From NCBI GenBank assembly GCA_035544735.1, contig DATKCD010000073.1:8546-72545 (forward strand): a stretch of DNA of 64,000 nt. Direction: 5' to 3'. The DNA is from Thermoanaerobaculia bacterium. Its GTDB lineage: Bacteria > Acidobacteriota > Thermoanaerobaculia > Gp7-AA8. How positions within the stretch are numbered: position 1 is the stretch's first letter; each line of letters begins with the position of its first letter. Position numbers and translations under genes: made by a program. The notes under the pieces were generated by a model. It was not told the DNA's origin. It did not search any database and saw only the letters and a program-made list of their open reading frames with translations. Shown here piece after piece: positions 1,989 to 57,154 of the stretch.

Positions 1989-2087
1989 GGAGCGGAGGCG
2001 GTGACTCGGAGGGCCGCAAGGCGCGACATCAGCGCCGAGCCGAAGATCGTCATTCTTCGCCGCGCCCCAGGGTTAGAATGCGCGTCG

Positions 2088-4690: not shown

Positions 4691-4785
4691 CCTCGCGCCT
4701 CCCGCCACCCGGGGCCGCTCCGTCACCGGAGCGGCCCCCCTCGAACCGACCGCCCGCGCCCGCCAGAGCGCGAAAGGAGTGTCCC

Positions 4786-7081: not shown

Positions 7082-10000
7082 GTGATCCCTCCCGATGCCG
7101 TCGCGGCGTGCGCCGACCTCCAGGGCGTCGCCGCCCTTCTGCGCGAGCTCGGCTGGGACGTCGCGCTCCGGCCGCTCGATCCGGGATTCTGGCGGAGATG
7201 CAACGTGGCGCCTCTGCCCGACACCGCGCATCTGTTTCACGCCTCCCGTCACGGGCCGATCGAGCTGTTCGTCGCGGAAGGGACCGCCGCCCGCGACGCC
7301 GTCGCGGCTTTCACCGGCGCGCTCTCGTCGTGGAATCTCCTGCTTCGATTCGTCACGGTCTATCGTGACTCGGAGACGGGGTCGATCTCGATCTTCGGCA
7401 CGGATGGGAAGCGCCGGCTGCGCCGCATCGATCTCGACCGAACTTCGCCCAGGGCCGAAGCGCTCGCGCGGGCGGGCGCCCTGGAACTGCGCGGGACCGC
7501 CTCGTCGGCCGACTTCGTCACGGGCCTGGAGCGCGCCTTCGAGAAAGAGAGCGTCGGCCGGAAGTTCTTCCTGCGGTTCCGGGACGACGTCGCCCGCCTC
7601 TCGCTCGACCTCGCGCGCGCCTGTCCGGCCGAGGATCCCCGTGCCCTCGCCGCCGAATCTCTGCTGATTCTCTCGAGAATCCTCTTCCTCTGTTTCATCC
7701 AGGAGAAAGGGTGGCTGGACGGAAATCGCGCATACCTGTCCGATCTGGTGCGCCGATCGGCGAAGGTTCGCGAAGGAATGTTCTCGGGGGTGTTCCTGCC
7801 GCTCTTCTTCGGCTGCCTGAACACTCCGCCCGCGCGTCGCGATCCGTTCGCGCGAAAGCTGGGGCGGGTCCCCTACCTCAACGGCGGACTGTTCGAGCCG
7901 AGCGCGTTCGAGCGCCGCCACCCGGTCATCGGGCTGGACGACGCCGTGCTCGAATCGATTCTGTTCGACACCTTCGAACGTTTCCAGTTCACGATCGAAG
8001 AGGACGACGAGACCGGCGCGCACATCGACCCGGAGATGCTCGGACGGGTCTTCGAGACGCTGATGGCGGAGGACGAGCGCGCGGAGAGTGGGAGCTTCTA
8101 CACGCCGCGTGAGGTCGTCGACGTGTTGACGGCCCGGGCGATCGCCGTCCGGGTCGGGCGGGACGAGCGGCGCGCGGGCGCGGTTCTGGCGCGATGGGCG
8201 GCGGAAGGGGAGGCGGAGATCGAGAGCATCGCGAGCCGCGAGCTTCTCGTCCGCCTTCGATCGATTCGGATCCTCGATCCCGCCTGCGGGTCGGGGGCAT
8301 TCCTTCTCGCCGCGCTTCACTCGCTCGAGGGCCTCGAGCGCCGGATCTGTGAAGGGCTGGGGATCCCGCCGCCCGCCGGCGTGCGGCGCCGGATCGTCGC
8401 GAGGTCGCTTCACGGAATCGATCTCAAGCCCGAGGCCGTCCGCCTGTGCGAGCTCCGCCTCTGGCTCGCGATCGCCTCGGCTCACGACGGCGATTCGATG
8501 GAGATCGAGCCTCTCCCCAACCTCGACCGGAACATCCTCCAGGGAAACGCGCTGATCGGCCCGCTCGACTTCGCCGGAGGTGCGCGCTTCGATCTGGTCC
8601 GCGAGTGGTCGTTCGCCCTTCGCGCCCGCGAAGGGATGCTCGAGCGGTACCGCGTCGCCGCGCCGGCGGAGCGGCGCTCGCTGGCTGCGGCTCTGCGGAG
8701 CTCGGACCGGGAGCTCGCGCTCGCGATGACCTCGCGTGCGGCCGAGGTCGCACGGGACGAAGTCGACGATCTGGTCCGCCGCCAGGGCTCGCTGTTCGGG
8801 GGGAAACCGCGCCGGAACGACCCGCGAATCGCAGCGATCGAGGCGCGGATCGAAGCGGCGGATCGTGAGCGGGCGCGCATCGAGTCGGGAGAGATCGGCT
8901 TCTTCGCCCCTGACGTCCATTTCGCGCACGTCGAGCGGGACGGCGGATTCGACCTCGTGCTCGGCAACCCTCCCTGGGTCCGCGCGCCGCGCATCGAGCC
9001 ATCCCAGCGCAAAAAGCTCGCCGAGCGCTATCCGATGTTCGGCAAACCGATGCGCGGGAGCGCCATCCATCAGGGAGAGCTCGCGCTCGCCTTCTTCGAG
9101 AAGAGCCTCCGGCTCGCCGCTCCGGGAGGCGTGGTCGCCCTTCTCGTTCCGGCCAAGGTCGCGACCGCCGATTACGCCGCCCGATTTCGTTCCGAGATCA
9201 GTCGTCACGGCCGCCTCGTCGAGATCCGCGACTGGAGCGAGCGCGCACGCTCGCTCTTCGACGCAGACACGTTTCCGCTCGGTGTCGTCCTGCTGAAGGG
9301 CGCCCGGCCGGCGACGACGCTCGTGGTGGACGGCGCGTCCGGATTCGCGGTACCACAGAGACGCCTGGGCGATCGCGCCGGCGGCCCGTGGATCCTCGCT
9401 CCCGCCGAGGTTCGCTCGATCCTCGATCGTCTGCGCGATGCCGGCGAGCCGTTCGCGACGCGGTTCGCTCCCCCCATCATGGGCATCAAGACGGGAGCCA
9501 ACCTCGAGTTCTTCGTCGAGCCGGAGATCGTGAACGGATCACGGTGGGCTCGGCTGGCCGGCATCGAGGTGCCCATCGAGGCTCTCTGCCGCGTCGTGCG
9601 CGGGCGCGACGTTCGCCGATGGAGCGCCCACGGATCGGTCTGGATGCTCTGGCCCCGGCCGGGCGAGCCGTGGTTCGAGCGTTGGCGCGCCTCGGGCGGA
9701 CCGAAGCCGGCTTCGCTCGCCTACTCTCGGCCCGCCCACTTCGGTTCGAAGGTCGTCTGGAAGGACATCTCGCGCGGGATGTCGGCGGCCGCGGTGCCGC
9801 CGGAAACCGAGTTCGAAGGACGTCGCGTCGCCCTCGTTCCGAATCAGACCGTCTATTGCGCGGAGGTCCCGAACATGGAGCAGGCTCACCTCGCCGCGGC
9901 GCTGCTCAACTCGACTCTCGCGGGCGCGTGGCTCGCCTCGGTCGCCGACCGCGCGAAAGACTCCCACTTCCGCTATTTCGGCAGGACGGTGGCGGGACTG

Positions 10001-10180
10001 CCGGTGCCGCAGCTCGATCGGGAAGCCGAACGGCGGCTCGCCGGTCTGGCGGGCCGGGCCGCGGCCGGGGCCCGCGTCGAGCGCGAGATCGATCTCGAGC
10101 TCGCGCGGGCGTTCGAGATCTCCGATCGGGAGATGCGGCTCCTGGGCGAGTATCTCGAGCGCCGTCTCGGCAGAGTCTGA
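7082..10180 (+). CDS. Large N6-adenine DNA methyltransferase with helical N-domain and C-terminal target-recognition domain (Eco57I / type IIG / BREX PglX / DISARM DrmMI-like)
   Basis: Motifs seen: PYLNGGLFE (type IIG/PglX hallmark), GSFYTPREVVD (motif X), ILDPACGSGAFL (motif I, SAM binding), LVLGNPPW (motif IV, amino-MTase) and a ~350-aa TaqI_C-like specificity domain. No PD-(D/E)xK, HNH or PLD nuclease motif is recognisable. GTG start is preceded by GGAGG. Confidence 0.8.
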   Translation: MIPPDAVAACADLQGVAALLRELGWDVALRPLDPGFWRRCNVAPLPDTAHLFHASRHGPIELFVAEGTAARDAVAAFTGALSSWNLLLRFVTVYRDSETGSISIFGTDGKRRLRRIDLDRTSPRAEALARAGALELRGTASSADFVTGLERAFEKESVGRKFFLRFRDDVARLSLDLARACPAEDPRALAAESLLILSRILFLCFIQEKGWLDGNRAYLSDLVRRSAKVREGMFSGVFLPLFFGCLNTPPARRDPFARKLGRVPYLNGGLFEPSAFERRHPVIGLDDAVLESILFDTFERFQFTIEEDDETGAHIDPEMLGRVFETLMAEDERAESGSFYTPREVVDVLTARAIAVRVGRDERRAGAVLARWAAEGEAEIESIASRELLVRLRSIRILDPACGSGAFLLAALHSLEGLERRICEGLGIPPPAGVRRRIVARSLHGIDLKPEAVRLCELRLWLAIASAHDGDSMEIEPLPNLDRNILQGNALIGPLDFAGGARFDLVREWSFALRAREGMLERYRVAAPAERRSLAAALRSSDRELALAMTSRAAEVARDEVDDLVRRQGSLFGGKPRRNDPRIAAIEARIEAADRERARIESGEIGFFAPDVHFAHVERDGGFDLVLGNPPWVRAPRIEPSQRKKLAERYPMFGKPMRGSAIHQGELALAFFEKSLRLAAPGGVVALLVPAKVATADYAARFRSEISRHGRLVEIRDWSERARSLFDADTFPLGVVLLKGARPATTLVVDGASGFAVPQRRLGDRAGGPWILAPAEVRSILDRLRDAGEPFATRFAPPIMGIKTGANLEFFVEPEIVNGSRWARLAGIEVPIEALCRVVRGRDVRRWSAHGSVWMLWPRPGEPWFERWRASGGPKPASLAYSRPAHFGSKVVWKDISRGMSAAAVPPETEFEGRRVALVPNQTVYCAEVPNMEQAHLAAALLNSTLAGAWLASVADRAKDSHFRYFGRTVAGLPVPQLDREAERRLAGLAGRAAAGARVEREIDLELARAFEISDREMRLLGEYLERRLGRV

Positions 10181-12015
10181 TGGAGCTCGAGGCGTGGGTC
10201 GGCGCTGCCCGCGAGCGGACGCTCCCTCCGCTCCGCGATCCTCCGCCGGTTCGCCTCATGCCGCATCAGGAGATGGGGGCCCGGCGGCTGGTCGAGGCCT
10301 TGCGGCGGTTCGGCGGCGCTCTGCTTCTGGACGAGGTGGGACTGGGCAAGTCGTTCACGGCTGCGACGGTGGCGCGCGAGCTCGCGGCGGAGGGCTGGCA
10401 GATCGAAGCATGCGTTCCCGCTCCTCTCGTATGCGGCTGGGAGCGGACCTTCGCCCGGTTCGGGGTGGCCGGACCGATCGTGACGCACGATTCGCTGCTC
10501 CGCCGCGCAGCGAGCGGGACGGGTCGCCGGCTTCTGCTGGTGGACGAGGCGCACCGCTTCAGGAACCGGGCGACGCTCCGACACCGCGCCCTCGAGGGCT
10601 GCCGTTCGATGGCGGGCCTTCTGCTGATCACCGCGACTCCGGTCTGCAACGGCATCGAGGACCTTCTCGCGATCGTCCGGCTCGCGGTCGGCGACGATTC
10701 ATTGAAGCCGTGGGGGATTGCGTCCATCGACCGGGCCTTCGCTCTGCGCGACCGGCGATCGGTGAGGGAGATCGTGGCGGCCGTGGGACTTCGCCGTTCG
10801 GCGGAGATCGAGGGACTTCCCTTTCCATCGCTGCGGCGGGCGGTCGTTCGATTCGGGCACGGAGCGGAAGGAGCCGAGGTGCGGCGCGGAATCGAGAGCC
10901 TCGGGTTTCCCGTGCTCGGCCAGGGGGGAGGGGCGCCACTGATGAGACAGCATTTGTGGCGTCGGTTCGAATCGAGTCCCGAAGCCCTCGTCGAGTCGCT
11001 CCTGCGGCAGCGCCGCTTCGTGCGGCGGGCCGCCGAGAAGCTCGCCGCAGGATTCACGCTCAGCCGCGCCGACTTCGCCTCGATGTTCGATCGCGAGGAC
11101 CATGGAATGTTTCAGGAGGTGCTCTTCCCGGAAGCGTTTTTCGGCAGGGTGGAGCCGGCCGGGAGCTCGATCGATGCGCGACTGGAGCAGGAGCTCCGCC
11201 GGATCGAGACACTTCTGTCGCTGGCTCGCAGGGCAGGCACGCCGAAGGTCGATCTGCTCGAGGAGCGCCTCGAAGGGATCGCGATGCCGGCGGTGATCTT
11301 CACGCGTGCCGTTGCCACTGCCCGGGCGGTCGTCTCCCGGCTGCGGCTCGCCCGGCGAACGGCCTCGATCACCTCGCGGGGCGCCAGCGACGACCGGGGA
11401 TGCGCCGTCGCGCCGGAGCGCGTGCTCGCGCAGTTCCGGGCGCGGCAGCTCGACCTTCTCGTCCTGACCGATCTGGCGAGCGAAGGCCTCGACCTGCAGA
11501 CCGCCGCGAGCGTAGTGCATTACGACCTCCCCTGGACTGCCGTGAAGCTTCATCAGCGCGATGGGCGCGCCAGGCGCATCGGACAGGTGCGTCCGGAGAT
11601 CGGCTCCGTCGTCTTCATCCCGGGTCGGGCGCTCGACTCCGGCGCCATGAAGTTCATCGCGCGGAAGGAGCGGCTTTCCAATCGCTACCTGGGAGCCGAT
11701 CCCTTCCCGAGCCGGTGCGAAACGGTCATCGGCGAGCGCCTCCCGGCGCTGGCTGCGCGCTGCGGCTCCTCGGTCGTCGTCGTCGACCGCGGCATTCTTC
11801 TCTTCGTCGTGAACGGAGAAGTGACGCTGGATCCCGGATCTCCCGGAATCGGCAACCGCGACTCGGTGAGTCCGTGCGAGATTCCTCCGGTTCTCGACCG
11901 GTGGCGCGAACAGGCGGAGCTGATGCCGCCGCGGTGCGCCCGCCTCCCGCCGGTCAGCGCGGCGACTGAAACAGGGGAGCGCCCGATATCCGGTCGACGG
12001 TCGAGGCGTAGGTGA
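10180..12015 (+). CDS. SNF2-family (SWI2/SNF2, DEAH-box) helicase/ATPase, minimal core
   Basis: Motif I LLLDEVGLGKSFTA, motif II LLLVDEAHRFRN, motif III LLITATPVCNGIEDL. Helicase-C has HQRDGRARRIGQ (motif VI). The ATG overlaps the MTase stop (TGATG at 10178-10182). It is 611 aa, with no nuclease or other added domains. Confidence 0.8.
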   Translation: MELEAWVGAARERTLPPLRDPPPVRLMPHQEMGARRLVEALRRFGGALLLDEVGLGKSFTAATVARELAAEGWQIEACVPAPLVCGWERTFARFGVAGPIVTHDSLLRRAASGTGRRLLLVDEAHRFRNRATLRHRALEGCRSMAGLLLITATPVCNGIEDLLAIVRLAVGDDSLKPWGIASIDRAFALRDRRSVREIVAAVGLRRSAEIEGLPFPSLRRAVVRFGHGAEGAEVRRGIESLGFPVLGQGGGAPLMRQHLWRRFESSPEALVESLLRQRRFVRRAAEKLAAGFTLSRADFASMFDREDHGMFQEVLFPEAFFGRVEPAGSSIDARLEQELRRIETLLSLARRAGTPKVDLLEERLEGIAMPAVIFTRAVATARAVVSRLRLARRTASITSRGASDDRGCAVAPERVLAQFRARQLDLLVLTDLASEGLDLQTAASVVHYDLPWTAVKLHQRDGRARRIGQVRPEIGSVVFIPGRALDSGAMKFIARKERLSNRYLGADPFPSRCETVIGERLPALAARCGSSVVVVDRGILLFVVNGEVTLDPGSPGIGNRDSVSPCEIPPVLDRWREQAELMPPRCARLPPVSAATETGERPISGRRSRRR

Positions 12016-30392: not shown

Positions 30393-31097
30393 ATGAGCGC
30401 AGAAACGGGCCGTCTTCGATGCGTGGCGATCCTTCCCGCGGGAGGATCCGGAATGCGCTTCGGCGGCGGGATCCCGAAACAGTTCGCGGAGCACGGGGGG
30501 CGGCCGTTGATCGGCTGGGCGATCGCGAGACTCGTGGAGAGCGGGCTGGTCGATCGAATCGTCGTCGCGGTTCCGGGCGCGCATCGGAGTCTGGCCGAGG
30601 CGATCATCCGCGAGGGCGCATGGAGCGCGGCCATCGACCTCGCGAACGGTGGCGCGACCCGGCAGGAGTCGGTCTGGAACGCTCTGGAGTCGGCGCCGGA
30701 GAGCGAGCTCGTCGCCGTTCACGACGCGGTCCGCCCCAACGTCTCGGCGGCCACGCTCGGATCTCTGCTCGATGCGGCCGCGCGATGGGGAGGAGCGATC
30801 CCCGGGCTTCCGCTCACCGATACGATCCATCGGGTCGAAGGTGCGTTCGTCGTCGAATCTCCGCGCCGTCAGGAGTGGGTCGCGGCGCAGACGCCCCAAT
30901 GCTTCCGGCGCGAGATCCTCGTCGAAGCGATGAAGCGCGCCCGCGACGAAGGGTGGGTGGGGACGGACGAGGCGGGGATCGTCGCCCGTCACGGGGGGAA
31001 GGTCCGCGTGCTCGATGGTGATCCGCGGAACGTGAAGGTCACGTGGCGCGAGGACCTCGGGCGCCTGCCCCTCGGCCTCGGAGAGGATGCGGAATGA
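30393..31097 (+). CDS. ispD: 2-C-methyl-D-erythritol 4-phosphate cytidylyltransferase
   Basis: AILPAGGSGMRFG...KQF IspD signature. Confidence 0.9.
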   Translation: MSAETGRLRCVAILPAGGSGMRFGGGIPKQFAEHGGRPLIGWAIARLVESGLVDRIVVAVPGAHRSLAEAIIREGAWSAAIDLANGGATRQESVWNALESAPESELVAVHDAVRPNVSAATLGSLLDAAARWGGAIPGLPLTDTIHRVEGAFVVESPRRQEWVAAQTPQCFRREILVEAMKRARDEGWVGTDEAGIVARHGGKVRVLDGDPRNVKVTWREDLGRLPLGLGEDAE

Positions 31098-31579
31098 TCC
31101 GGATCGGTCAGGGAATCGACGTCCACCCGTTTCAGGAGGATCGGCCGCTCGTGCTGGGTGGTGTGCGGATCGCCGACCGGAGAGGGCTGGCGGGCCATTC
31201 GGACGCCGACGCGGTCCTTCACGCGCTGACCGACGCGCTTCTCGGATCGGTCGCGGCGGGAGACATCGGCGCCCACTTTCCTTCGTCGGATCCGAAGTGG
31301 CGCGACGCGGACTCCCGGCTGTTCGTCGCCGGAGCGCTCGACGCGGTCGCTCGCGCCGGCTTTCGCGTCGTCAACGTCGATGTCACGATCGTGGCTGAAA
31401 CGCCGAAGCTCGCGCAGCAGATGGAGCCGATCCGATCCTCGATCGCCGCGATGCTCGGGATCGAGAGCGGGCGGGTGGGCGTGAAGGCGACCACGACCGA
31501 CCATCTCGGTTTCGTCGGCCGGAACGAGGGAATCGCCGCACTCGCCGTCGTCCTGGTCGAATCCCTCGACCGCTCCTGA
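31094..31579 (+). CDS. ispF: 2-C-methyl-D-erythritol 2,4-cyclodiphosphate synthase
   Basis: RIGQGIDVHPF...HSDADAVLHALTDALLG. Overlaps the ispD stop (ATGA). Confidence 0.9.
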   Translation: MIRIGQGIDVHPFQEDRPLVLGGVRIADRRGLAGHSDADAVLHALTDALLGSVAAGDIGAHFPSSDPKWRDADSRLFVAGALDAVARAGFRVVNVDVTIVAETPKLAQQMEPIRSSIAAMLGIESGRVGVKATTTDHLGFVGRNEGIAALAVVLVESLDRS

Positions 31580-35128: not shown

Positions 35129-35204
35129 GCTGGCATAGCTCAGTTGGTAGAGCAGCTGATTTGTAATCAGCAGGTCGCGGGTTCGAGTCCCGCCGCCAGC
35201 TCCA
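35129..35204 (+). tRNA. tRNA-Thr (anticodon TGT)
   Basis: Manual fold: acceptor gctggca/cgccagc, D-arm gctcagttggtagagc, anticodon loop tttgtaa, T-arm gcgggttcgagtcccgc, encoded CCA end. Confidence 0.85.
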
Positions 35205-35229
35205 GCACCCCGGGGCCGGAACGAGGTGT

Positions 35230-35315
35230 GGAGGCGTGCCCGAGTGGCTAAAGGGGGCAGACTGTAAATCTGTTGGCGCAAGCCTACGGTGGTTCGAATC
35301 CATCCGCCTCCACCA
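35230..35315 (+). tRNA. tRNA-Tyr (anticodon GTA), long variable arm
   Basis: ggaggcgtgcccgagtggc...gactGTAaatc...ggttcgaatcc...cgcctccacca. Confidence 0.85.
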
Positions 35316-35412
35316 GCTCGTCCGTCCAGTGCGGCGGCTTGGGATCCCCGTTCAGCGGCGGAAGCTCGAGAGCGCTCGAGGGTCCGCCGGCGGCCGGGGC
35401 GAATCGGGCCGG

Positions 35413-35487
35413 GCGGGAGTAACTCAGTGGTAGAGTCACAGCCTTCCAAGCTGTTGGTCGCGGGTTCGATCCCCGTCTCCCGCTCCA
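35413..35487 (+). tRNA. tRNA-Gly (anticodon TCC)
   Basis: gcgggagtaactcagtggtagag...ccttCCAa loop has TCC at positions 34-36. Ends in the canonical Gly 3' sequence ...gtcgcgggttcgatccccgtctcccgctcca. Confidence 0.85.
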
Positions 35488-35546
35488 ATCCGATCCCGAC
35501 AGATCGCGAGGTGCGGAGCGCGGTCCGAGGCCGTGGACGGACGAAC

Positions 35547-35621
35547 GCCCTCGTAGCTCAGGGGTAGAGCACGTCCTTGGTAAGGACGGGGTCACGAGTT
35601 CAAATCTCGTCGAGGGCTCCA
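35547..35621 (+). tRNA. tRNA-Thr (anticodon GGT)
   Basis: gccctcgtagctcaggggtagagc...cttGGTaa...gagttcaaatctcgtcgagggctcca. Confidence 0.85.
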
Positions 35622-35700
35622 TCGGCCGGTCCGGCGCGGCCGAACGGCGAGGCAGGGGCGCGCGGCGCGGCGCGGGCGACATCACGACAACGGAGATCGC

Positions 35701-35859
35701 ATGGCGGCAGTCAGAGAGATCATCAACCTGCAGTGCACCGAGTGCAAACGCCGGAATTACTCGACGACCAAGAACCGGAAGACCTCGACCGAGAAGCTCG
35801 AGCTCAGCAAGTTCTGCCGGTTCGATCGCCGGCACACGGTGCATCGGGAAGTCAAGTAG
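35701..35859 (+). CDS. rpmG: 50S ribosomal protein L33
   Basis: Not in the ORF track (52 aa). [52 protein letters not shown] carries a C4 zinc ribbon and the L33 signature. Confidence 0.9.
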
Positions 35860-35883
35860 GCGGGGATTCGACGAGACGAACAC

Positions 35884-35960
35884 AGGCCAGTAGCTCGAAC
35901 TGGTAGAGCAGCGGTCTCCAAAACCGCGGGTTGGGGGTTCGAATCCCTCCTGGCCTGCCA
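35884..35960 (+). tRNA. tRNA-Trp (anticodon CCA)
   Basis: aggccagtagctcgaactggtagagc...ctCCAaa...ggttcgaatccctcctggcctgcca. Confidence 0.85.
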
Positions 35961-48122: not shown

Positions 48123-48144
48123 CCGCTGTACGGATCCAGGATCG

Positions 48145-48182
48145 GAGGGCGGGCCCGGGTGGGCTCGCCCTCTTCGTTTCCG
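48145..48182. terminator. Terminator after rpoC (bidirectional with the convergent proline dehydrogenase gene)
   Basis: gagggcgggcccgggtgggctcgccctc stem followed by ttcgtttcc. Confidence 0.6.
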
Positions 48183-48204
48183 CGGAGCACGCCGCGATCG
48201 CGCC

Positions 48205-49128
48205 TCACCCCACCCAGAGGTTCTTCACGACGAACCATACGTTGGCGGGGCGCTCGGCGAGGCGGCGCACGTACCAGGGAAACCACTGCTCGCCGTAGCT
48301 GATGAGAACCCGCACCTTCGCTCCGGCGGCCGCGAGCGCGCGCTGCGCGGCCGACTCGATCCCGTACAGCATGTGAACCTCCCAGCGATCGGTCGCGCGA
48401 CTCTCGGCGTGGTTCCGGATCCGCGCGAGAAGTTCGAGATCGTGCGTCCCGAAGACCGGGAAGGCTCCCCCGTCGGCGGCGGCATCCAGCAGGCGCCGAC
48501 CGAGCTCGAAGAACGCGCGATCGGTGTCCCTCTTCTTCGGATAGGCCACCTCGTCCGGTTCCCGATACGCCCCCTTCACGAGGCGGATCGCAGGCGAGAG
48601 CGGCAGAAGCGATTCGAGGTCCGCCGGCGTCCGCCGAAGGTAGGACTGGAGGCAGAGTCCGACGTTCGGCGATGCCGCTCGGGCGGCCCGGAAGATCTCG
48701 ATCGTTCGGTCGACGTAGCCGGACTCCTCCATGTCGATCCACGCCGTCGAGCCGATCCGCCCGGCCGCCTCGGCGAGTGAAACGACGCTCTCGAGGCAGA
48801 GGTCGGGATCGAGGTCGAGCCCCAGGTGGGTGAGCTTGACCGAGACGTGGGTCGGGAGCGCGCGATCGCGAATGGCATCGACCACGCGATGGTAGTGATC
48901 GCGAACGGCGCGCGCCTGCTCGCGGCTCTCGGTCCGCTCGCCGAGGTTCGTCAGGATCGTTCCGAGTCCGGCCCGTCCGAGCTCGGCGGACGCGCCGAGT
49001 GCGGACTCGAGGTCTTCTCCCGGCATGAAGCGGCGGACCGCCCGCTGCACGAACGGCCGCCGCGGCAGGTGCTCGGCGAGCCAGCGGCTCCGGGACGCCC
49101 GGAGGAGGAGAGATCGCGCGATCGACAC
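48205..49128 (-). CDS. Proline dehydrogenase (PutA PRODH-domain family, monofunctional)
   Basis: TIM-barrel PRODH motifs (VSVKLTHLGLD, RLVKGAYREP, LYGIE). Confidence 0.8.
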   Translation of the reverse strand: MSIARSLLLRASRSRWLAEHLPRRPFVQRAVRRFMPGEDLESALGASAELGRAGLGTILTNLGERTESREQARAVRDHYHRVVDAIRDRALPTHVSVKLTHLGLDLDPDLCLESVVSLAEAAGRIGSTAWIDMEESGYVDRTIEIFRAARAASPNVGLCLQSYLRRTPADLESLLPLSPAIRLVKGAYREPDEVAYPKKRDTDRAFFELGRRLLDAAADGGAFPVFGTHDLELLARIRNHAESRATDRWEVHMLYGIESAAQRALAAAGAKVRVLISYGEQWFPWYVRRLAERPANVWFVVKNLWVG

Positions 49129-49245
49129 GGCGACATTGATACCCTTCCCGGCGCCCGGTTGTCCATCCGCGCCGAAGCCTCGATTCTCCGCCCGGATTGA
49201 GCGATGATTCGGGTTTCACTCACGGTCCATCAGAAGGAGGCCCCG

Positions 49246-49749
49246 ATGAGCGGTCACAGGAAAGAGGCATTTCTACGGACGTCCGACCGGGAGCACAAGA
49301 CGACGATGCGCGTGCTGCGCGCGTACCCACCCGACAAGCTGGACATGCGTCCGAGCGAGCGATCCAACACGGCGCGGGGACTCGCGTGGACCTTCGTCCT
49401 CGAGCGCGGCCTCGGCCGGAAGGTGTGGCACGACGGATTCGCGGACGGAGTGCCCCCGTCGAAGCCGGCTGACCCGCCCGAGTCGTGGGACGAGCTTCTC
49501 GATGCGCTCGAGAAGTCGCACGCCGAGTTCCGCGCTCTCGTCGCCGGCGCTTCCGACGACGACCTCGACGTCAAGGTGCACTTCTTCACCGCTCCGAAGA
49601 CGATGGGCGAGATCTCGAGGCACGAGTTCATCTGGTTTCTGCTCCACGACGAGATCCACCACCGCGGACAGTTCTCGGTCTACCTTCGGCTGGCGGGCGC
49701 GAAGGTTCCATCGATCTACGGCCCCTCGGCCGACGAACCGTGGATGTGA
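49246..49749 (+). CDS. DinB/YfiT-family (DinB_2) metal-dependent protein
   Basis: Four-helix-bundle DinB signature with HDEIHHRGQ near the C-terminus. Confidence 0.7.
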   Translation: MSGHRKEAFLRTSDREHKTTMRVLRAYPPDKLDMRPSERSNTARGLAWTFVLERGLGRKVWHDGFADGVPPSKPADPPESWDELLDALEKSHAEFRALVAGASDDDLDVKVHFFTAPKTMGEISRHEFIWFLLHDEIHHRGQFSVYLRLAGAKVPSIYGPSADEPWM

Positions 49750-50041
49750 GCCCGCCGGGTCGGGACGCTCCGGATGGACATCGCCTTTCAGGTCGCGCTC
49801 GTGCTTGCCGGGCTCTTCGTGCTCGACCGCCTCGCCCTCGGAGCCGAGCGGCGCGGGTGGATCTACTACCGTCGCCGGAAGGCTTCCCCGGGAACCGCCG
49901 CTGGAGCCTTTCTCGAAGCTCAATCGCTCGTCGAACCGGCGAAGAAGCACGTGGCGGAGGCACGGAGGAACGAAGAGGTCGACGAGGAGGACCTGGCAGA
50001 CCCGCCCTCGACGGGCGCATGATCGGCCGGAGGACGCATTC

Positions 50042-50713
50042 GTGTTTCTCGGACATCTGGCAATCGGCTTTGGGGCGAAGCGGCTGGCGCCACGCCTTTC
50101 TCTCGGCACGCTGATCCTCGGTTGCCAGCTCGCCGATCTGATCTGGCCGGTCCTGATCCTGATCGGGATCGAGCGGGCGGAGGTTCGGCCGGGCATCACC
50201 ACGGTGACGCCGTTGGAGTTCCTCCACTACCCCTGGTCGCACAGCCTGCTCATGCTGGTGTTCTGGGGAATCGCTCTTGGGGTCGTCTGGGCGGCGGTCC
50301 GGCGCGGCTCGGTGCGGGACGGGGCCGTCCTGGCGATCGTGGTCGTCAGCCACTGGTTTCTCGATGCGTTGACGCATCGGCCCGACCTCCCGCTCACGCC
50401 GTGGGGGGAGGTGAAGGTGGGCCTGGGACTCTGGAGCTCGTTCGCGGGCACGATCGCGGTGGAGCTGGTGCTGTTCGCGATCGGGGTCGAGATCTATCGG
50501 CGGTCGACGGTGCCGCGCGACCGGACGGGGACGTGGAGCCTGGCCGCGCTCGTCCTCTTTCTGCTCGTGGTCTTCGCTGCAAATCTGTTCGGCCCGCCGC
50601 CTCCGGAGATCGTGGCGGTCGCGTGGGTGGCGCAGGCGATCTGGCTCCTGGTGGCGTGGGGTTACTGGATCGACCGGCATCGGATGCCGCGCGACGATCT
50701 CCGGAGGGTCTGA
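50042..50713 (+). CDS. Membrane-bound metal-dependent hydrolase (DUF457 / YdjM-like)
   Basis: Four to five TM helices with conserved His/Asp (FLGHLAIG...HWFLDALTHR). GTG start. Confidence 0.6.
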   Translation: MFLGHLAIGFGAKRLAPRLSLGTLILGCQLADLIWPVLILIGIERAEVRPGITTVTPLEFLHYPWSHSLLMLVFWGIALGVVWAAVRRGSVRDGAVLAIVVVSHWFLDALTHRPDLPLTPWGEVKVGLGLWSSFAGTIAVELVLFAIGVEIYRRSTVPRDRTGTWSLAALVLFLLVVFAANLFGPPPPEIVAVAWVAQAIWLLVAWGYWIDRHRMPRDDLRRV

Positions 50714-50722
50714 CCGCGGGTC

Positions 50723-50968
50723 TCAGCGGTCGAGCTTCGTGAGCTCGTCGTCGAGGAATGCCAGGGCATTCTCGAGCGCGGCGCGGTGCGCGGGCGTCGT
50801 CGCCGTCTCGAGGTCGGTCAGGACCCGCCTTCGAGACATCGACAGGCTCGCGCGCTTCCGTTCGCGCTCCTCGACCGCGCGAGGAACGTGCCTGTTCCCG
50901 GCCTCGATCTCGCTCTGACGGTCCGCGATCTGTGATTCGACCGACTTGCTTTCCCACCCTCTTGCCAT
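50723..50968 (-). CDS. Small coiled-coil protein (81 aa), DUF2630-like
   Basis: MARGWESKSVESQIADRQSEIEAGNRHVP...ALENALAFLDDELTKLDR. GGAG RBS. It sits just downstream of the LDH-family gene on the same strand. Confidence 0.45.
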   Translation of the reverse strand: MARGWESKSVESQIADRQSEIEAGNRHVPRAVEERERKRASLSMSRRRVLTDLETATTPAHRAALENALAFLDDELTKLDR

Positions 50969-50973
50969 GAGCT

Positions 50974-51913
50974 TCACTCCGGTCCGCGGAATGCGGCGTC
51001 TCGGATCGGGGCGAGCGCCTCGCGGAGAATCTGCGCCGAGCGATCGAGCCGCGCCCGTTCGTCGGTCGACATTTCGGGTTCCAGGACTTCGGTCGCCCCC
51101 TGGCGGCCGACGATCGCGGGCAGCGAAAGAGCTACGTCGCGGATACCTGCCGCTCCCTCCTGCACCCGGGTCACGGTGAGAATGCGCCGGTCGCCTCGGA
51201 GCATCCACGCGAGCAGGGAGGCGGTCACGAGCCCGATCGCGTGGTTGGTCGCTCCCTTTCTCCGGATGATCTCGTAAGCGGCGGTCCGGACCTCGGCTGC
51301 GATCCGCTCCTCCTTCGCCGCGCTCCATCCGGTCCAGTCGCGGAGCCGCAGCCCTCCCGCCCGCGCTCCCTCCCACAGGACGACCTCCGAGTCTCCGTGC
51401 TCTCCGACGACCTGCGCGTGGACGGACCGAGGGTCGACGCCGAGCTCGCGTCCGAGCATCTGTCGGAGCCGCGCCGTGTCGAGCATAGTGCCCGTGCCGA
51501 TGACGCGGGCAGGGGGGAGCCCGGCCGCCGCCGTCATGACCGAGGTCAGCACGTCGACCGGGTTGGTGACGACGACGATGATCCCGCCGAATCCCCGCAG
51601 AGTCTCGCCGATCCGCCTCGCGGTCGCCGCGTTGTCCTTGAGCAGATCGAGACGCGTTTCGCCCGGGCGGCCGCCCCGACCCGCGGTGACGACCACGGCG
51701 TCGCAGGCGCGCATCTCGTCGAGCTCCGTGGCCCGGACCGAGGCTGGAGGATAGAACGGCGCCCCCTGCCCCAGGTCCATCGCCTCCCCTTCGGCGATCG
51801 CGCCGCGGACGTCGTGAAGCAGGAGCTCGGTCGCGATTCCGCGCTGCAGCGTGGAGATCGCGACGCTCGATCCGACCCATCCGGTCCCGACGATGCCGAC
51901 TCGGCTCACGCCT
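50974..51913 (-). CDS. L-lactate/malate dehydrogenase-family 2-hydroxyacid dehydrogenase
   Basis: Rossmann GIVGTGWVGSS and the substrate loop AGRGGRPGETRLDLL (position 102 is neither Q nor R). Catalytic VIGTGTMLDTARLR and GEHGDS. GTG start. Confidence 0.85.
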
Positions 51914-52015
51914 CGGGAGGGTGGCACGACTCGTACGCGGTCGGCAACCCGGGGGCGGGCACCGGGAGGGGAGTTCCCCCGCCCGCCCGGAGAGCGGGCG
52001 GTACAATCGGGCGGA

Positions 52016-53719
52016 ATGGTCGAAGCGGGCCGGGAGCGCACGGCGGAGGGGGCGGAGCGGCGGGAGCTGGCGATCGAATCGCTTCTGATCGTTTTCCTTT
52101 TCGCGCTTCTGGTGCTCACCGTCGATCCCCGCGGAGACTTTCCCCTCGACGACGACTGGAACTTCGCGCTCGGGACGTGGTGGTTCGCCGAGCATGGAGA
52201 GTTCCGTTTCGCACGCTTCACGGGGATGAGTCTTCGGGCGCAGGTGGTGTGGGGTGCGGTCTGGACGCGGTGGTTCGGCGAGAGCTTCGAGGTGCTGCGC
52301 GCGTCGACGCTCGTCCTGGCGCTAGGAAGCCTGCTCGTGTTCCACCGCTTCTGCGCACGTGCCGGCGTCGGCTCGTTTTCGCGGCGAATCGCGGTCGTGG
52401 CACTCATGGCACATCCGATCTTTGTCTGGTCGTCGTTCACGTACATGACGCAGATCCCGTTTCTCGCGTGCACGGTGGCGGCCGTGTACTGCTGGGCCAG
52501 GGGTGCCGGGGATCGCGCGATCGGGTGGTTCGCGGCCGGCTCGGCCGCGCTGATCGCGTCCTATTTCGTGCGCCAGAGCGGCATTGCGACGATCGCCGCG
52601 GGTGCGGCGGCGCTGGCGGTCGTCTGGAGCGGCTCCGGACGGCGGTTCCGCGCCGCGGCGACGGCGCTACTCGCGATTCCGGGAGCTCTGTTTCTCGTCA
52701 TGATCGTCGGAACCGATCTGCTGCACGGGCGGCCGGAGGAGTTCGCGCTCCGTTTCGGACTTCTCGATCTTCCGCCGGCGCGCGCCGCCGCGGCACTCGC
52801 TGCCCAGATCGCCAGAAACTTCGCATTCGAGATGCAGTACGCCGTGCTCTCGCTGCTCGGGGTCGCCCTGGCCGCGTCGCTGGCGAGACTCGATCGCCGG
52901 GAGCTCGCGGGCGCCCTGCTGCTGGCGATCCCGATCGCCTGGGGTGCTTCGGAGCTCTCGGCGCTTCGGGGTCCGCTCCCGTACGACATTCACGGGAACG
53001 TCATCGTCGGAACCGGTTTCGGGCCGCTCACGCTCCGCGACACCTGGATCTTCGGATATCCCGGACCGCGAGAGATCGCCACTGTGATTCGGTGGCTGCT
53101 CACCATCGGCGGCGCCGCGCTGGCGTCGGTGTGCCTGAGCCGCATCGCGATCGAAGGATGGCGCCTCGCTCGCGAGAGAGGGAATCCGGGCGTGGCCGTC
53201 GCCGCCGCGGCGGGCACTCTGGCGGGCGGCACCGCCATTCTCTTCACGACCGACATCTTCTTCGACCGATACGCCCTCGATGCGGCCTGGTCTCTGGCGT
53301 TTCTCCTTCCCGCGGTCACGGCGTGGACCGGATGGAGAAAGGTGATCGCGATCGGCGCGACGCTCCTCGTCTTCGTCTTCTCGGCCGTGGGGACTTCCGA
53401 CTATCTCGCATGGAATCGAGCGAGGTGGGAAGGGTTCGGCTGGCTTCGGGCGAGGGGAGTGCCGCTCGAGCGGATGGACGGAGGATACGAGATCAACCAG
53501 TATCTGATCGGCGGGTTCGACGGGCCGGCCTTCCTGCGAAAGCCGCAGTTCTCGGTGGTCGACGACGAGTGGATTCTTTCGTTCAACGAAGTGGCCGGGT
53601 ACCGAACCGTCGCCCGCGTCGAGTACGAACGATGGTCGGGAGCGGGCACGATTCACGTTCAGCGCCGGACGGAAGGGTTTCGCCCGGGGCTCGCTCGCGG
53701 GGAGGGGGAGATCCCGTGA
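52016..53719 (+). CDS. GT-C-fold membrane glycosyltransferase-like protein, paralog 1 (ArnT/PMT-like topology)
   Basis: TM1 is followed by a loop carrying DPRGDFPLDDDWNFA (acidic DD/DxD motif in the first periplasmic loop). About 11 TM helices, then a ~130-aa C-terminal soluble domain (ERMDGGYEINQYLIGGFDG...). Confidence 0.55.
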   Translation: MVEAGRERTAEGAERRELAIESLLIVFLFALLVLTVDPRGDFPLDDDWNFALGTWWFAEHGEFRFARFTGMSLRAQVVWGAVWTRWFGESFEVLRASTLVLALGSLLVFHRFCARAGVGSFSRRIAVVALMAHPIFVWSSFTYMTQIPFLACTVAAVYCWARGAGDRAIGWFAAGSAALIASYFVRQSGIATIAAGAAALAVVWSGSGRRFRAAATALLAIPGALFLVMIVGTDLLHGRPEEFALRFGLLDLPPARAAAALAAQIARNFAFEMQYAVLSLLGVALAASLARLDRRELAGALLLAIPIAWGASELSALRGPLPYDIHGNVIVGTGFGPLTLRDTWIFGYPGPREIATVIRWLLTIGGAALASVCLSRIAIEGWRLARERGNPGVAVAAAAGTLAGGTAILFTTDIFFDRYALDAAWSLAFLLPAVTAWTGWRKVIAIGATLLVFVFSAVGTSDYLAWNRARWEGFGWLRARGVPLERMDGGYEINQYLIGGFDGPAFLRKPQFSVVDDEWILSFNEVAGYRTVARVEYERWSGAGTIHVQRRTEGFRPGLARGEGEIP

Positions 53720-55374
53720 GCGTCGCCGACGATCGGATCGTGACGCCCTCCCGGCGCTCGCTCCCGGGCGGCCTCGCGCTTCTCGCCCTGTTCGCCGGAT
53801 CCGTCGCTCTCGTCCGGCCCTACGGCAACTTTCCACTCAACGACGACTGGAACTTCGCGATGGCCGCCTGGCACTTCGCCGAGAATCTCGAGTTCCGCTT
53901 CTCCCGACTGACGGGGATGTCGCTGAAGCTGCAGGTCCTCTGGGGGGCACTCTGGACCTGGCTGTTCGGCAGATCGTTCGAGGTGCTCCGGGCCTCGACG
54001 CTGTTTCTCTCCGCCGCCACGCTCCTTCTCTTCTGGAAGTGGACCGGCGAGCTCGGATGGCGCGGACCGGTCAGGATGCTGATCGCCGCCTCCCTGCTCG
54101 CGAACCCGATCTTCTTCTGGTCTTCCATGACGTTCATGACGCAGGTCCCGTTTCTGTTCTGTTCGATGCTCGGTTTGTACTCGACCTGGAAGGCGTACCG
54201 GGAGGAAAAGATCGGATGGGGAGTCGCTGCGGCAGTGGCGGTGCTCGCCGCAGCGCTGATCCGGCAGACCGGAATCGCCGTCGCCCTCCCGGGGCTGTTG
54301 TTGCCGTGGCTCGACCGTCGGGAAGGCGCGAACAGACGCCTCTCGCTTCCATTCGCCGCGGCCTGCGTTCTGTTCGCGGCGCTCTACGCGGGGACCGATC
54401 TGTTCGACGGATATCCCGGCCAGATCGCCGTTCACTACGAAGCCTACCGAGGCGAGCGCGGCTGGATCCAGGCGCTGATCGTTCCGTTTCACCATTTCGG
54501 GACGAACGTGCAGTACGGCGCTCTGTTCGCGCTCCCGCTGACGGCCGGCCTGCTGCTCACGCGGATGCGGCCCGACCGGCGGTGGGTGGCCGTGTCGCTG
54601 CTGCTCTCCTCGGTGCCGGTCGCCGTCGGTTCCTGGCAGATCGCGAGGGGAAACCCCTTTCCCTACGGAACCGGGGGATCCATTCTTCAGAACATCGGGC
54701 TCGGGGTGATGACGCTCCGCGACGTCTATTTTCTCGGCTACGACTACCCGACTCACCTCGGCCGGTTCGGCTCGATCGTGGCGACGGCACTGGCAGTCCT
54801 GGCGGGCGCGTTTCTGCTCGGCAGAGCCGTCCGGGGATGGTTCGAGAGTGCGACGGCTCCGCTCGGCGCGGCTCTGGCGGTCCGGCTCGGCCTCCTCCAC
54901 TCGGCGGCGGCCACCGCCATCCTGATCCCTTCGGCGATCTATTTCGACCGTTATGCCCTCGACTCGCTCTGGTGCATTCCGTTGTGGGCTCCGTTTCTGA
55001 TCCGGTGGAGCCGCCCGGTACGTGTCGCCGTCGCCGCCGTGCTGGTGCTGCTGCTCGGATTCTCGATCGCAGCGACTCGGGAGTACTTCGCCTGGAATCG
55101 GGCTCGCTGGGAGGCGTTCGGCTGGCTCACCGACCGAGGGGTGACTCTGCGTGAGATGGATGGGGGGTACGAGATCAACCAGTATCTTCTCGGAGGGTGG
55201 GACGGTCCGGAGCGGCTGGACAAGCGCGGGTTTTCGGTCGTCGACGACGAGTACGTGATCGCCTTCAACCGGGAGGTGAGAGGCTACGAGGCGATCCACT
55301 CGATTCCGTATCGGGGGTGGATCAGCGGAGCAGGAGCGATCCACGTTCTGCAGCGGCGGGAGGTGGATCGGTGA
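53716..55374 (+). CDS. GT-C-fold membrane glycosyltransferase-like protein, paralog 2
   Basis: GTG overlaps the paralog-1 stop (GTGA). RPYGNFPLNDDWNFAMAAWHFAENLEFRFSRLTGMSLKLQVLWGALWT is collinear with paralog 1. Same C-terminal domain (EMDGGYEINQYLLGGWDG). Confidence 0.55.
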   Translation: MSVADDRIVTPSRRSLPGGLALLALFAGSVALVRPYGNFPLNDDWNFAMAAWHFAENLEFRFSRLTGMSLKLQVLWGALWTWLFGRSFEVLRASTLFLSAATLLLFWKWTGELGWRGPVRMLIAASLLANPIFFWSSMTFMTQVPFLFCSMLGLYSTWKAYREEKIGWGVAAAVAVLAAALIRQTGIAVALPGLLLPWLDRREGANRRLSLPFAAACVLFAALYAGTDLFDGYPGQIAVHYEAYRGERGWIQALIVPFHHFGTNVQYGALFALPLTAGLLLTRMRPDRRWVAVSLLLSSVPVAVGSWQIARGNPFPYGTGGSILQNIGLGVMTLRDVYFLGYDYPTHLGRFGSIVATALAVLAGAFLLGRAVRGWFESATAPLGAALAVRLGLLHSAAATAILIPSAIYFDRYALDSLWCIPLWAPFLIRWSRPVRVAVAAVLVLLLGFSIAATREYFAWNRARWEAFGWLTDRGVTLREMDGGYEINQYLLGGWDGPERLDKRGFSVVDDEYVIAFNREVRGYEAIHSIPYRGWISGAGAIHVLQRREVDR

Positions 55375-56990
55375 GCGCCGGATCGATCTCCGGCGGCACG
55401 TTCCGGCGATGGGGAGCGGAGGCGGTCGCGGCGGCGTCGCTCGTCGGGTTCGGATTCGCCTTCCATCGTTCCGCTCTCGAGGGATGGTGGCTCTTCGACG
55501 ATCCGCAGATCGTCGCGCACGCGAGGCAGTTTCCCTGGTACGAGATCATGTTCCTTCCTTCGGCGTGGCGCTGGCTCTCCACCTCCAACTTCACGCCGCT
55601 GGTCACGCTCTCGTTCGAGCTCGACCTGATGCTCGGCGGGCTCGATCCCCGGGTTTATTACGCGCACCAGCTTTCGAGCGCCCTGGCGGCCGGACTCGCG
55701 CTCCATGCCTTCCTTCGCGCACTCCGCGTTCCCGTGGCGAGCTCGGCGATGCTCGCCGCCGCCTTTCTGGCCTCGCCGCCGATGGTCGAGTGCGTCCGCT
55801 CGCTGATGACCCGGCACTATCTGGAAGGATCGCTGCTCTTTCTCGTCGCCGCGAATCTCTGGGTTCGGGCTCGCACGCGAGCCGGACTGACGGCCGCGTC
55901 GGCGCTCGCGCTGCTGGCCATGCTCGCAAAGGAGCTCTTCGTCCCCTGTTTTCTCGGCTTGCTCCTGATCGATCGGTTCCGGCGCCTCCCCCGGCGGGAG
56001 ATGGCCGAACGGGCGCTCGCGGTGGCCGCGGTCGTGACCCTCTACACCGCCTGGCGATTCCTCGCCCTCGGCGGGTTCGGCGGCTATGGTCCGGGGCTTC
56101 GGACGGGGTCGCTCCCTACGCCTCTCGATCTGATCTCGATCTTCGCCGGGGAGCCGGACGCGCCGTGGTGGGCGCTCTGGCTGGCGGCCCTTTCGTTCGT
56201 CGTCTTCCGGAGCCGGTTGCGGCCTCGGGCGGCGTGGTCGGCGGCGGGGGCGATCCTGCTGCTCGGCCTGGTTCCCATTCTGCCCGTTCTTCGCTTCCCC
56301 TTTCCGCGCTACTTCTACGTTCTCGGCCTGATGATCGTGGTTCTTTTCGGGCTGGCGCACCCGCTTCTCGGCAGAAGGGGGGGGCTGCTCGTTCCGCTGG
56401 CACTGCTGGTGAGCTCGGCCGGCGCGGGGCTGCAGGCGGCCCGGGGGGCCGAGCTCGAGGCGGCGGCCTGGGAGCGGGAGGGGCGATGGATGCTGGAGGG
56501 TCCCCCCGCCCCCACGCTGTTCGAGAGCGCCCACACTCTCTACCTCGACGGGCTTCGTCATCTCTATCTCGGACCGGGGAGTGAGCCGGCGCATCCGGTG
56601 GCCCTCTCGACCGTGGTGGTGCAGCCGGAATGGCCCGAGATGGTGAGATTCCGGCATGGAAGGATGGTGAAGCCGACCGAGCACGAGCGCGTGTCGCCCC
56701 TCGATCCCTCGCGCTCGGGTCTGGTGCTCGCGAACCGGGGGGGGCGCTACGCCTGGTCGCTCTGGCCGAGGGGAGGAGACTGGAGGTACGTCGCGTCGCC
56801 GTTCGGGGAGGCGTTCGCCGTGGAAGCGGAGGGCTCGCTGCGGGCGCCGACGAGCCTCTGGCCGCCGACGCGGGAGGGGGAGGGGTGGTTCCGGTTCGCC
56901 CGGCGAGTCGAGCGGGGGTGGATCGTGAGTCCGCGCCTCCCTTTGCCGCAGCGGGGCGAAGCGGTTCGGTGGGGAACGATACCGGAATAA
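55371..56990 (+). CDS. GT-C-fold membrane glycosyltransferase-like protein, divergent paralog 3
   Basis: GTG overlaps the paralog-2 stop. The first loop has EGWWLFDDPQIVAHA. Polytopic, with a different C-terminal soluble domain. Confidence 0.5.
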   Translation: MSAGSISGGTFRRWGAEAVAAASLVGFGFAFHRSALEGWWLFDDPQIVAHARQFPWYEIMFLPSAWRWLSTSNFTPLVTLSFELDLMLGGLDPRVYYAHQLSSALAAGLALHAFLRALRVPVASSAMLAAAFLASPPMVECVRSLMTRHYLEGSLLFLVAANLWVRARTRAGLTAASALALLAMLAKELFVPCFLGLLLIDRFRRLPRREMAERALAVAAVVTLYTAWRFLALGGFGGYGPGLRTGSLPTPLDLISIFAGEPDAPWWALWLAALSFVVFRSRLRPRAAWSAAGAILLLGLVPILPVLRFPFPRYFYVLGLMIVVLFGLAHPLLGRRGGLLVPLALLVSSAGAGLQAARGAELEAAAWEREGRWMLEGPPAPTLFESAHTLYLDGLRHLYLGPGSEPAHPVALSTVVVQPEWPEMVRFRHGRMVKPTEHERVSPLDPSRSGLVLANRGGRYAWSLWPRGGDWRYVASPFGEAFAVEAEGSLRAPTSLWPPTREGEGWFRFARRVERGWIVSPRLPLPQRGEAVRWGTIPE

Positions 56991-57025
56991 GGGTCTGAGG
57001 CACCCTGTTACTGGCCCGAGCAGGC

Positions 57026-57060
57026 TTGACAAGAGCTGGGCGCGGGGATATTTTGCGCCG
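57026..57060 (+). promoter_or_regulatory. Sigma-70-type promoter of the str operon
   Basis: TTGACA (57026-57031), a 17-nt spacer, then TATTTT. It is ~95 nt upstream of rpsL. Confidence 0.4.
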
Positions 57061-57154
57061 GTTTTCCCTGCGGTCCGGACATTCCTAAGTTTCAGAGCCA
57101 CAGGATTTTCGCGGCCTCGAGGGGGGCTGGGACAGAACGAAGTTCGAGGAACGA

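Follow-up and report, generated by a model that had tools for sequence, protein, structure and literature searches.

Three consecutive + strand genes in a 64,000-nucleotide stretch of a contig from an uncultured member of the Thermoanaerobaculia (Acidobacteriota; GenBank DATKCD010000073.1; the whole stretch is referred to below as the window) probably form a translationally coupled operon of glycosyltransferases with the GT-C fold. We infer that the products of these genes, here named G1, G2 and G3, are all catalytically competent, and put the probability of this reading at roughly 0.78. GT-C enzymes build or decorate the bacterial envelope, acting on lipopolysaccharide (LPS), arabinan and glycoproteins, and most of the environmental families are uncharacterised. 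Two such families are defined here: a widespread one with 13 transmembrane (TM) helices that is related to Pfam PMT_2 and contains G1 and G2, and an unannotated one with 11 TM helices, a β-rich C-terminal domain and a likeness to the TMTC proteins, which contains G3. The prediction is sound but fairly ordinary and overturns nothing known; what is gained is an aid to annotation and a set of candidate catalytic residues. A literature search on Thermoanaerobaculia glycosyltransferases found no publication.

Three translationally coupled genes

G1 (52016–53719, +) has an ATG start and encodes 567 amino acids (aa). It is followed by G2 (53716–55374, +; 552 aa) and G3 (55371–56990, +; 539 aa), both of which start with GTG. 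At each junction the start codon overlaps the preceding stop codon in a GTGA (+ strand, 53716–53719 for G1–G2 and 55371–55374 for G2–G3). A Shine-Dalgarno-like GGAG (53707–53710) precedes the first of these and GGAGG (55359–55363) the second, with a spacing from each GTG of 5–7 nt when read off the sequence, as expected for translational coupling. The G+C content of the window is ~67%, and long spurious open reading frames (ORFs) are therefore common. In a position-specific G+C profile, the value at third codon positions exceeds 0.8 precisely in the G1, G2 and G3 frames of the + strand and switches frame exactly at both GTGA junctions, which supports all three genes as coding. The NCBI annotation of the source contig contains the identical three coding sequences with identical lengths (VMS56_07925/30/35), all labelled 'hypothetical protein'. 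Sequence, codon-position profile and annotation thus confirm the three ORFs and GTGA overlaps described in the original prediction, and the acidic motifs quoted there are present in the proteins (FPLDDDWNFA in G1, FPLNDDWNFA in G2 and WLFDDPQIVAHA in G3). The arrangement is more than a chance juxtaposition, since the G1–G2 pair is conserved with its GTGA junction in another Thermoanaerobaculia metagenome-assembled genome (MAG; L003), and G2–G3 with a 4-bp overlap is also found in the metagenome contigs L001 and L002.

Predicted fold and membrane topology

An AlphaFold (AF2) model of G2 was built from the family alignment with high confidence (predicted local distance difference test score, pLDDT, 93; predicted template modelling score, pTM, 0.93). 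When the model is searched against the PDB with Foldseek, the best match is ArnT (5f15; E 7.6e-6), followed by AglB, ALG9, STT3, Pmt4, Emb and PglB, and the first 34 PDB matches are exclusively GT-C proteins. For the G3 model (pLDDT 86, pTM 0.89) the top 18 matches are all GT-C (PglB, STT3, AglB, Pmt4, AftB, AftA, ArnT and DPY19), with PglB leading at E 1.4e-4 and PglB, STT3 and AglB together spanning E 1.4e-4 to 2e-3. All three proteins show a polytopic fold resembling solved GT-C enzymes, which have 7–13 TM helices, and carry after TM1 an acidic motif that is conserved in the first loop outside the cytoplasm. The GT-C-like nature originally proposed for them is borne out by these matches and by the conserved DD loop.

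Topology was assigned by taking the AF2 helices as TM segments and combining them with alignment-wide charge statistics, an approach that replaced a Kyte-Doolittle scan because the latter undercounted TM helices. The G2 model contains 13 TM helices, as does G1 by alignment to G2. In the G3 model, 11 TM helices are followed by a β-rich C-terminal domain of ~160 aa (about residues 377–539). The density of lysine plus arginine per residue in the G1/G2 family is 0.227 for the presumed cytoplasmic loops and 0.074 for the presumed periplasmic ones; the corresponding values for the G3 family are 0.215 and 0.074. In both families this bias indicates that the N-terminus is cytoplasmic and that the DD loop and the C-terminal domain lie in the periplasm. 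G1, G2 and G3 are therefore predicted to share one topology, with the N-terminus in the cytoplasm and with both the DD pair of the first loop and the C-terminal domain on the periplasmic side, as the original prediction had supposed for the loop. The pair corresponds to D46–D47 in G1 (52151–52156, +), where it is invariant and may be a catalytic or metal-binding site, to D43–D44 in G2 (53842–53847, +), where it lies in a net acidic, lysine- and arginine-poor loop, and to D43–D44 in G3 (55497–55502, +). A conserved basic residue is also found at the periplasmic turn between TM5 and TM6 in G2 (R183) and G3 (K187).

The G1/G2 family

A word-indexed search recovered at least 172 proteins of the G1/G2 family, and at least 572 loci were located when the GTDB species representatives were scanned. 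These are spread over Thermoanaerobaculia, other Acidobacteriota, Bacteroidota (Saprospiraceae, Prolixibacteraceae), Cyanobacteria, Myxococcota, Verrucomicrobiota, Zixibacteria, WOR-3 and others; some relatives carry the NCBI labels 'ArnT family' or 'GT39 family'. Carriers of the family that may be cultivable include Lewinella, Phaeodactylibacter and Microcystis. The family is recognised by the diagnostic motifs DDW, MTxVP, RQ, DRY and AWNRARW. In an alignment of 52 sequences that includes G1 and G2, the residues P40, D43, D44, T139, T142, P145, R183 and Q184 (G2 numbering) are invariant, as are R412, D416, W419, Y457, W460, R464, G484 and E486. R183–Q184 (54262–54267, +) forms the TM5/TM6 turn, and R183 is a candidate phosphate-binding site by analogy with the KE motif of the TMTC proteins, in models of which the lysine binds the phosphate of dolichyl-phosphate mannose (PMC7801869). 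D411-R412-Y413 (54946–54954, +) is a conserved periplasmic DRY motif and the sole segment that aligns between the G1/G2 and G3 families. The conserved periplasmic C-terminal domain, ~95 aa long in G1, carries the signature AWNRARW...GGYEINQ.

G3 belongs to a separate, TMTC-like family

The three proteins were originally described as paralogs. G1 and G2 are indeed related, with 42% identity over 536 aa by BLASTP (E 2e-112), whereas G3 has no BLASTP similarity to G1. Comparison of the G1/G2 and G3 profiles with hhalign gave a probability of 55% over only 62 columns, centred on the DRY/PRY loop, and the description of all three as paralogs was rejected on the strength of this short match. The original prediction is thus partly supported: its observations were right and its GT-C interpretation largely so, the wording being inaccurate for G3.

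An exhaustive phmmer search for the G3 family returned 906 cluster representatives, of which 573 have E values of 1e-10 or lower. A search of this kind was necessary because a word-index search under-reported the family, yielding 3 proteins and then 8 with a profile. Among 44 relatives of G3, weak Pfam matches were found to PMT_2 (three proteins) and STT3 (two), and neither G3 nor any of these relatives has a Pfam match to TPR or DUF1736. G3 resembles PglB, STT3 and AglB (GT66), its top Foldseek matches, in being a GT-C protein with a periplasmic C-terminal domain. Unlike these, it has no WWD, and so lacks the WWDYG motif, and it has no STT3 Pfam match, so that the combination which marks GT66 is absent.

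A further relationship is with bacterial polytopic proteins that bear TPRs. The G3 profile aligns with one such protein, P0275, over 312 columns (97.9% probability, E 3e-13) and with another, P0276, at 95.8% probability. TPR arrays are seen only in these more distant relatives of G3 (P0273–P0276), whose architecture is TMTC-like. The human TMTC1-4 proteins have 11 TM helices and a set of motifs comprising DD and SHKSYRPL..SF in EL1, RxD in EL2, KE(T/Q)xxT in EL3, DW in EL4, PxxP in TM9 and ERxxY in EL5 (PMC7801869). Counterparts in G3, matched by eye to the table in that paper, are D43/D44 (motif M1), NFTPLVTLSF, R148..E152, K187/E188 (M4; 55929–55934, +), P302..P305 and, in the loop between TM9 and TM10, R313-Y314..Y316 (M7; R313–Y314 at 56307–56312, +). 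K187/E188 of G3 can be set beside K186/E187 of TMTC2, both in EL3. Across the 44 family members D44, D85, H99, R148, K187/E188 and R313 are invariant, P76 is also invariant, and D43 is conserved in at least 90% of them. Neither DW nor the ERxxY glutamate could be found in G3, where a proline stands in the position at which the family consensus has glutamate before R-Y.

As judged from the profiles and the AF2 model, G3 is therefore best described as a TMTC-like GT-C with a β-rich domain in place of the TPRs, and not as a diverged copy of G1 or G2. It shares with TMTC1-4, the protein O-mannosyltransferases of the endoplasmic reticulum, and with their prokaryotic TPR-bearing homologs the 11 TM helices, the cytoplasmic N-terminus and the extracytoplasmic C-terminus. 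It differs from them in lacking the TPR array, the DUF1736 loop and a recognisable DW, and in having the ~160-aa β-rich domain. In CAZy, TMTC1-4 are placed in family GT105.

This likeness raises the alternative of periplasmic protein O-glycosylation, in which mannose or another hexose would be transferred from a polyprenyl-phosphate sugar to Ser/Thr of exported proteins, with G1 and G2 acting as a heterodimer like Pmt1-Pmt2. Besides the homology of the G3 membrane domain to the TMTC-like proteins and its motif counterparts, the sole Pfam similarities of G1/G2 are to PMT_2 and to PMT, the latter being the family of the GT39 protein O-mannosyltransferases (PMTs); G1 and G2 share with these families the acidic pair in loop 1. 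Pmt4 is among the best fold matches of both the G2 and G3 models. PMTs are reported to be obligate dimers and work as dimers of paralogs, which the coupled G1–G2 pair would fit. Conversely, the MIR domain of PMTs has no Pfam match in G1, G2 or G3, and the TPRs of TMTC are likewise absent; both domains are tied to protein substrates. PMTs have 11 TM helices, compared with 13 in G1 and G2. Related islands at the same genomic site (see below) contain GT4, EpsE-like GT2, asparagine-synthase-like amidotransferase and methyltransferase genes more typical of glycan clusters. On this evidence we consider protein O-glycosylation unlikely.

A bolder version, which we hold to be distinctly improbable, is that an obligate heterodimeric GT-C formed by G1 and G2 acts with the TMTC-like G3 in an undescribed bacterial periplasmic pathway, such as TMTC/PMT-style protein O-glycosylation in Acidobacteriota. 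Were this so, the two families would found new CAZy glycosyltransferase families, and G3 would have, in its β-domain, a new module for acceptor recognition in place of the TPRs.

Comparative genomics

The G1 and G2 orthologs in L003 are each 69% identical to their counterparts in the window and are joined by the same GTGA. Given this equal divergence and the retention of all the invariant residues, neither gene looks degenerate or relaxed, and G1–G2 is an old duplicated pair, orthologously conserved, co-inherited and translationally coupled. Tandem duplications have also arisen independently elsewhere in the family (L013, L017, L022 and L082). L044, a Bacteroidia MAG, has three tandem G1/G2-type genes (1850–6840), a triplication separate in origin from the G1/G2 duplication seen here.

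The interval between rpoC and rpsL holds a monophyletic group of G1/G2-type genes in the window and in L003, L004, L007 and L008, while the rest of the island varies. The L003 island adds a PMT_2 protein, an ArnC-like GT2 (NCBIfam E 1.4e-44), an asparagine-synthase-like enzyme, a methyltransferase and a 485-aa protein of unknown kind. The L004 island adds a GT2, a GT4, a PpgS-like GT2 (E 1.2e-60), DUF2304 and DUF2142, a gene set that we take to be akin to the mycobacterial PpgS-Rv3632-Rv3779 system. The sister island L008, like L003 and L004, contains a GT2 synthase. The gap between rpoBC and the str operon in Thermoanaerobaculia is a variable insertion slot, in which relatives carry differing glycosylation gene sets.

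Further evidence on the donor comes from relatives of G3. Among 31 distant G3-branch metagenome loci with sequence on both sides, an ArnC-like GT2 adjoins the gene in 17 and lies within 5 kb in 23. Close G3 relatives occur ~6 kb from G1/G2-type genes in L017, L021, L022 and L089. The GT2 neighbours point to monosaccharide-phosphate donors and not to diphosphate-linked oligosaccharides. In the distant loci as a group (L101–L165) the adjoining GT2 is usually ArnC/GtrB-like, and several loci have an upstream methyltransferase or occur as tandem pairs (L139, L140, L160, L164). These distant G3 and GT2 loci look like a compact, uncharacterised two-gene module for periplasmic glycosylation.

A further question is whether one or more of the three proteins might have a function other than glycosyl transfer, either as a non-catalytic partner or scaffold like PIGU of the glycosylphosphatidylinositol (GPI) transamidase, or as a ligase or polymerase of undecaprenyl-diphosphate-linked glycans. 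GPI transamidase subunits (7wld_U, 9ub7_B) do appear low in both fold lists, and the proline of G3 at the glutamate position of the family E-x-R-Y consensus could be read in this way. Against such a role, the family-invariant polar residues, including DD and the arginine or lysine of the TM5/TM6 turn, are all kept in G1, G2 and G3, the equal divergence of the G1 and G2 orthologs gives neither a relaxed appearance, and the distant G3 relatives are linked to synthases of monosaccharide-phosphate lipids and not to Wzx/Wzy-type genes. We regard a non-catalytic, ligase or polymerase function for any of the three as highly improbable.

Points that weigh against the assignment

A number of results weigh against reading the operon as three glycosyltransferases with the donor and acceptor types proposed below. 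The global TM-scores of the G2 and G3 models to solved GT-C structures are just 0.36–0.45, and the similarity is therefore a fold-level resemblance and not a close relationship. Searches of PDB sequences with single proteins and with family profiles gave no match for G1/G2 (5ezm included) or for G3, and hhalign of the two family profiles against Escherichia coli ArnT was not significant (E 0.082 and 0.17). The Pfam gathering score of PMT_2 (PF13231; 26.1 bits) is missed by G1 (17.2 bits, E 0.006) and G2 (24.1 bits), and G3 has no match to this model. G3 in fact matches no Pfam or NCBIfam model, and no model covers its family. Across phyla, the genes immediately next to members of the G1/G2 family are of mixed kinds: a Pfam census of 120 such neighbours gave RNase PH (9), CoA transferase (6), β-lactamase (5), PMT_2 (4) and GT2 (3), so that gene context says little about a partner or acceptor. 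An adjoining GT2 is missing from all 8 close G3 relatives whose flanking sequence is long enough. The likely genes of the window, most of which were scanned with Pfam, yielded no GT-A or GT-B enzyme and no flippase candidate, which counts against a GT2 synthase or flippase in cis. Lastly, a preference for a non-protein acceptor draws only on the island gene content of relatives and on the absence of TPR and MIR domains.

The PMT_2 score deserves a qualification. Of 52 aligned G1/G2 relatives, 39 match PMT_2 at E <0.01 (best E 4.9e-12), and the family therefore borders PMT_2, with the window proteins alone falling below threshold. For the Pfam PMT model (PF02366), G2 scores 18.2 bits, under the threshold of 22.7, and G1 has no match; in NCBIfam, G1/G2 give only a weak match to LA_3751/3752 and none to ArnT. 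With scores below gathering and no significant alignment to E. coli ArnT, G1 and G2 do not qualify for GT39 or GT83 by these tests, and are better filed under 'GT-C superfamily, near PMT_2 family' than under GT39, GT83 or GT87, all three of which the original prediction had named. The possibility that the acceptor of G1/G2 could be read from gene context was also pursued and was dropped when the 120-neighbour census showed no universal partner.

Proposed donors, acceptors and mechanism

Taken with these reservations, the assignment of G1, G2 and G3 as three GT-C glycosyltransferases suggests the following scheme. A cytoplasmic GT2 of the ArnC/GtrB/PpgS type, encoded elsewhere in the genome, would load a monosaccharide onto polyprenyl (undecaprenyl) phosphate; the lipid-linked sugar would then be flipped to the periplasmic face, where each GT-C would bind the phosphate of the donor and transfer the sugar to a periplasmic acceptor. 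Polyprenyl-phosphate sugars are the likely donors, as originally proposed, on the basis of the ArnC/GtrB/PpgS-like GT2 genes in sister islands and near distant relatives of G3. The original prediction saw no cytoplasmic GT-A/GT-B enzyme or flippase in the cluster, and this holds for the likely genes of the window, most of them scanned with Pfam; in relatives, donor synthases do lie in cis. The original suggestion that the three enzymes extend a single glycan step by step is conjectural.

The scheme follows the logic of three-component systems (GtrA/GtrB/Gtr*, Arn, and ORF12 of GT136), in which a GT2 synthase works together with a flippase and with a GT-C (PMC11127046). The mycobacterial PpgS-Rv3632-Rv3779 system is another of this kind. 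In GT136 a β-rich domain follows TM11, as in G3. Unlike these systems, the window has only GT-C components, and three of them, with neither the GT2 polyprenyl-phosphate glycosyl synthase nor the small flippase of a Gtr- or Arn-type locus in cis. The small ORFs left out of the Pfam scan were checked for hydrophobic helices only and include nothing like a small 4-TM flippase.

That G1 and G2 are translationally coupled and inherited together points to a heteromer of fixed stoichiometry or to a pairing of distinct specificities. The two proteins may thus differ in acceptor or linkage specificity, or may form a heterodimer in the manner of Pmt1-Pmt2 or EmbA-EmbB. For the acceptor, we incline to a glycan or glycolipid of the envelope (LPS core, lipid A or exopolysaccharide) rather than protein.

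Within that range, the fold of G2 draws attention to LPS modification of the ArnT/Rgt type, in which each enzyme would add one sugar to lipid A or LPS core at the periplasmic face. ArnT (lipid A 4-amino-4-deoxy-L-arabinose transferase, GT83; PDB 5ezm/5f15) is the best structural match of G2, and its layout of 13 TM helices (PMC7801869) with a C-terminal periplasmic domain fits that of G1/G2. It also has, like G2, juxtamembrane helices in the first periplasmic loop. Strong conservation of the periplasmic residues in the G1/G2 family would fit a conserved acceptor, and the undecaprenyl-phosphate-monosaccharide donor of ArnT is made by the GT2 ArnC, while an ArnC-like GT2 lies in the sister island of L003. 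The phyla that carry the family are taken as diderm. An analogy is offered by Rhizobium leguminosarum RgtA/RgtB/RgtC, three GT-C galacturonosyltransferases of the LPS core with a GT2 donor synthase, RgtE, that is encoded at another site; here the resemblance is organisational only, in that several GT-C genes serve one envelope glycoconjugate. Set against this, the sequences of G1 and G2 show no significant likeness to that of E. coli ArnT and no NCBIfam ArnT match, the TM-score between G2 and ArnT is 0.36–0.38, no arn genes are present, and LPS genes are absent from the vicinity of the operon. LPS modification of this type is on balance doubtful.

Genomic neighbourhood

The operon is sited in a core information-processing region, between rpoC and rpsL. 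Upstream on the + strand are nusG, rplKAJL (named from position and ORF size), rpoB (end 43926) and rpoC (end 48122). The slot itself (48123–57154) contains genes for a proline dehydrogenase (48205–49128, −), a DinB-family protein (49204–49749, +), a YdjM-like membrane hydrolase (50042–50713, +) and a lactate/malate dehydrogenase (ldh; 50977–51909, −), the last being divergent from G1, and then the three GT-C genes. The operon promoter is presumed to lie in the 106-bp region between ldh and G1 (51910–52015), in which a promoter scan found no sigma-70 consensus site.

A scan found no terminator after G3. The operon is bounded downstream by a promoter-like TTGACA-17-TATTTT (57026–57054, +), which lies 36 bp past the stop codon of G3 and before rpsL. 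This strong sigma-70-like site is probably the promoter of the str operon, and it is kept nearly base for base in L001 and L002, which also carry G2–G3. It overlaps a terminator-like hairpin call at 57039–57059. Beyond it follow rpsL (57155), rpsG, fusA, tuf and rpsJ, the last two named from position and ORF size.

Elsewhere in the window, ispD and ispF of the methylerythritol phosphate pathway for isoprenoid precursors lie ~20 kb upstream of the operon (30453–31579, +), with no evidence for a functional link to it. Five tRNA genes are clustered at 35129–35957 (+), just upstream of nusG and rplKAJL-rpoBC. A further polytopic protein of 568 aa (5343–7049, −) has at least 5 hydrophobic helices, no Pfam match and no match to either GT-C profile. 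At 7082–12015 (+) the gene for an Eco57I/MmeI-type restriction-modification methyltransferase fusion (1032 aa) has immediately after it that for a SNF2-family helicase (611 aa), and the two are probably a defence or restriction island.

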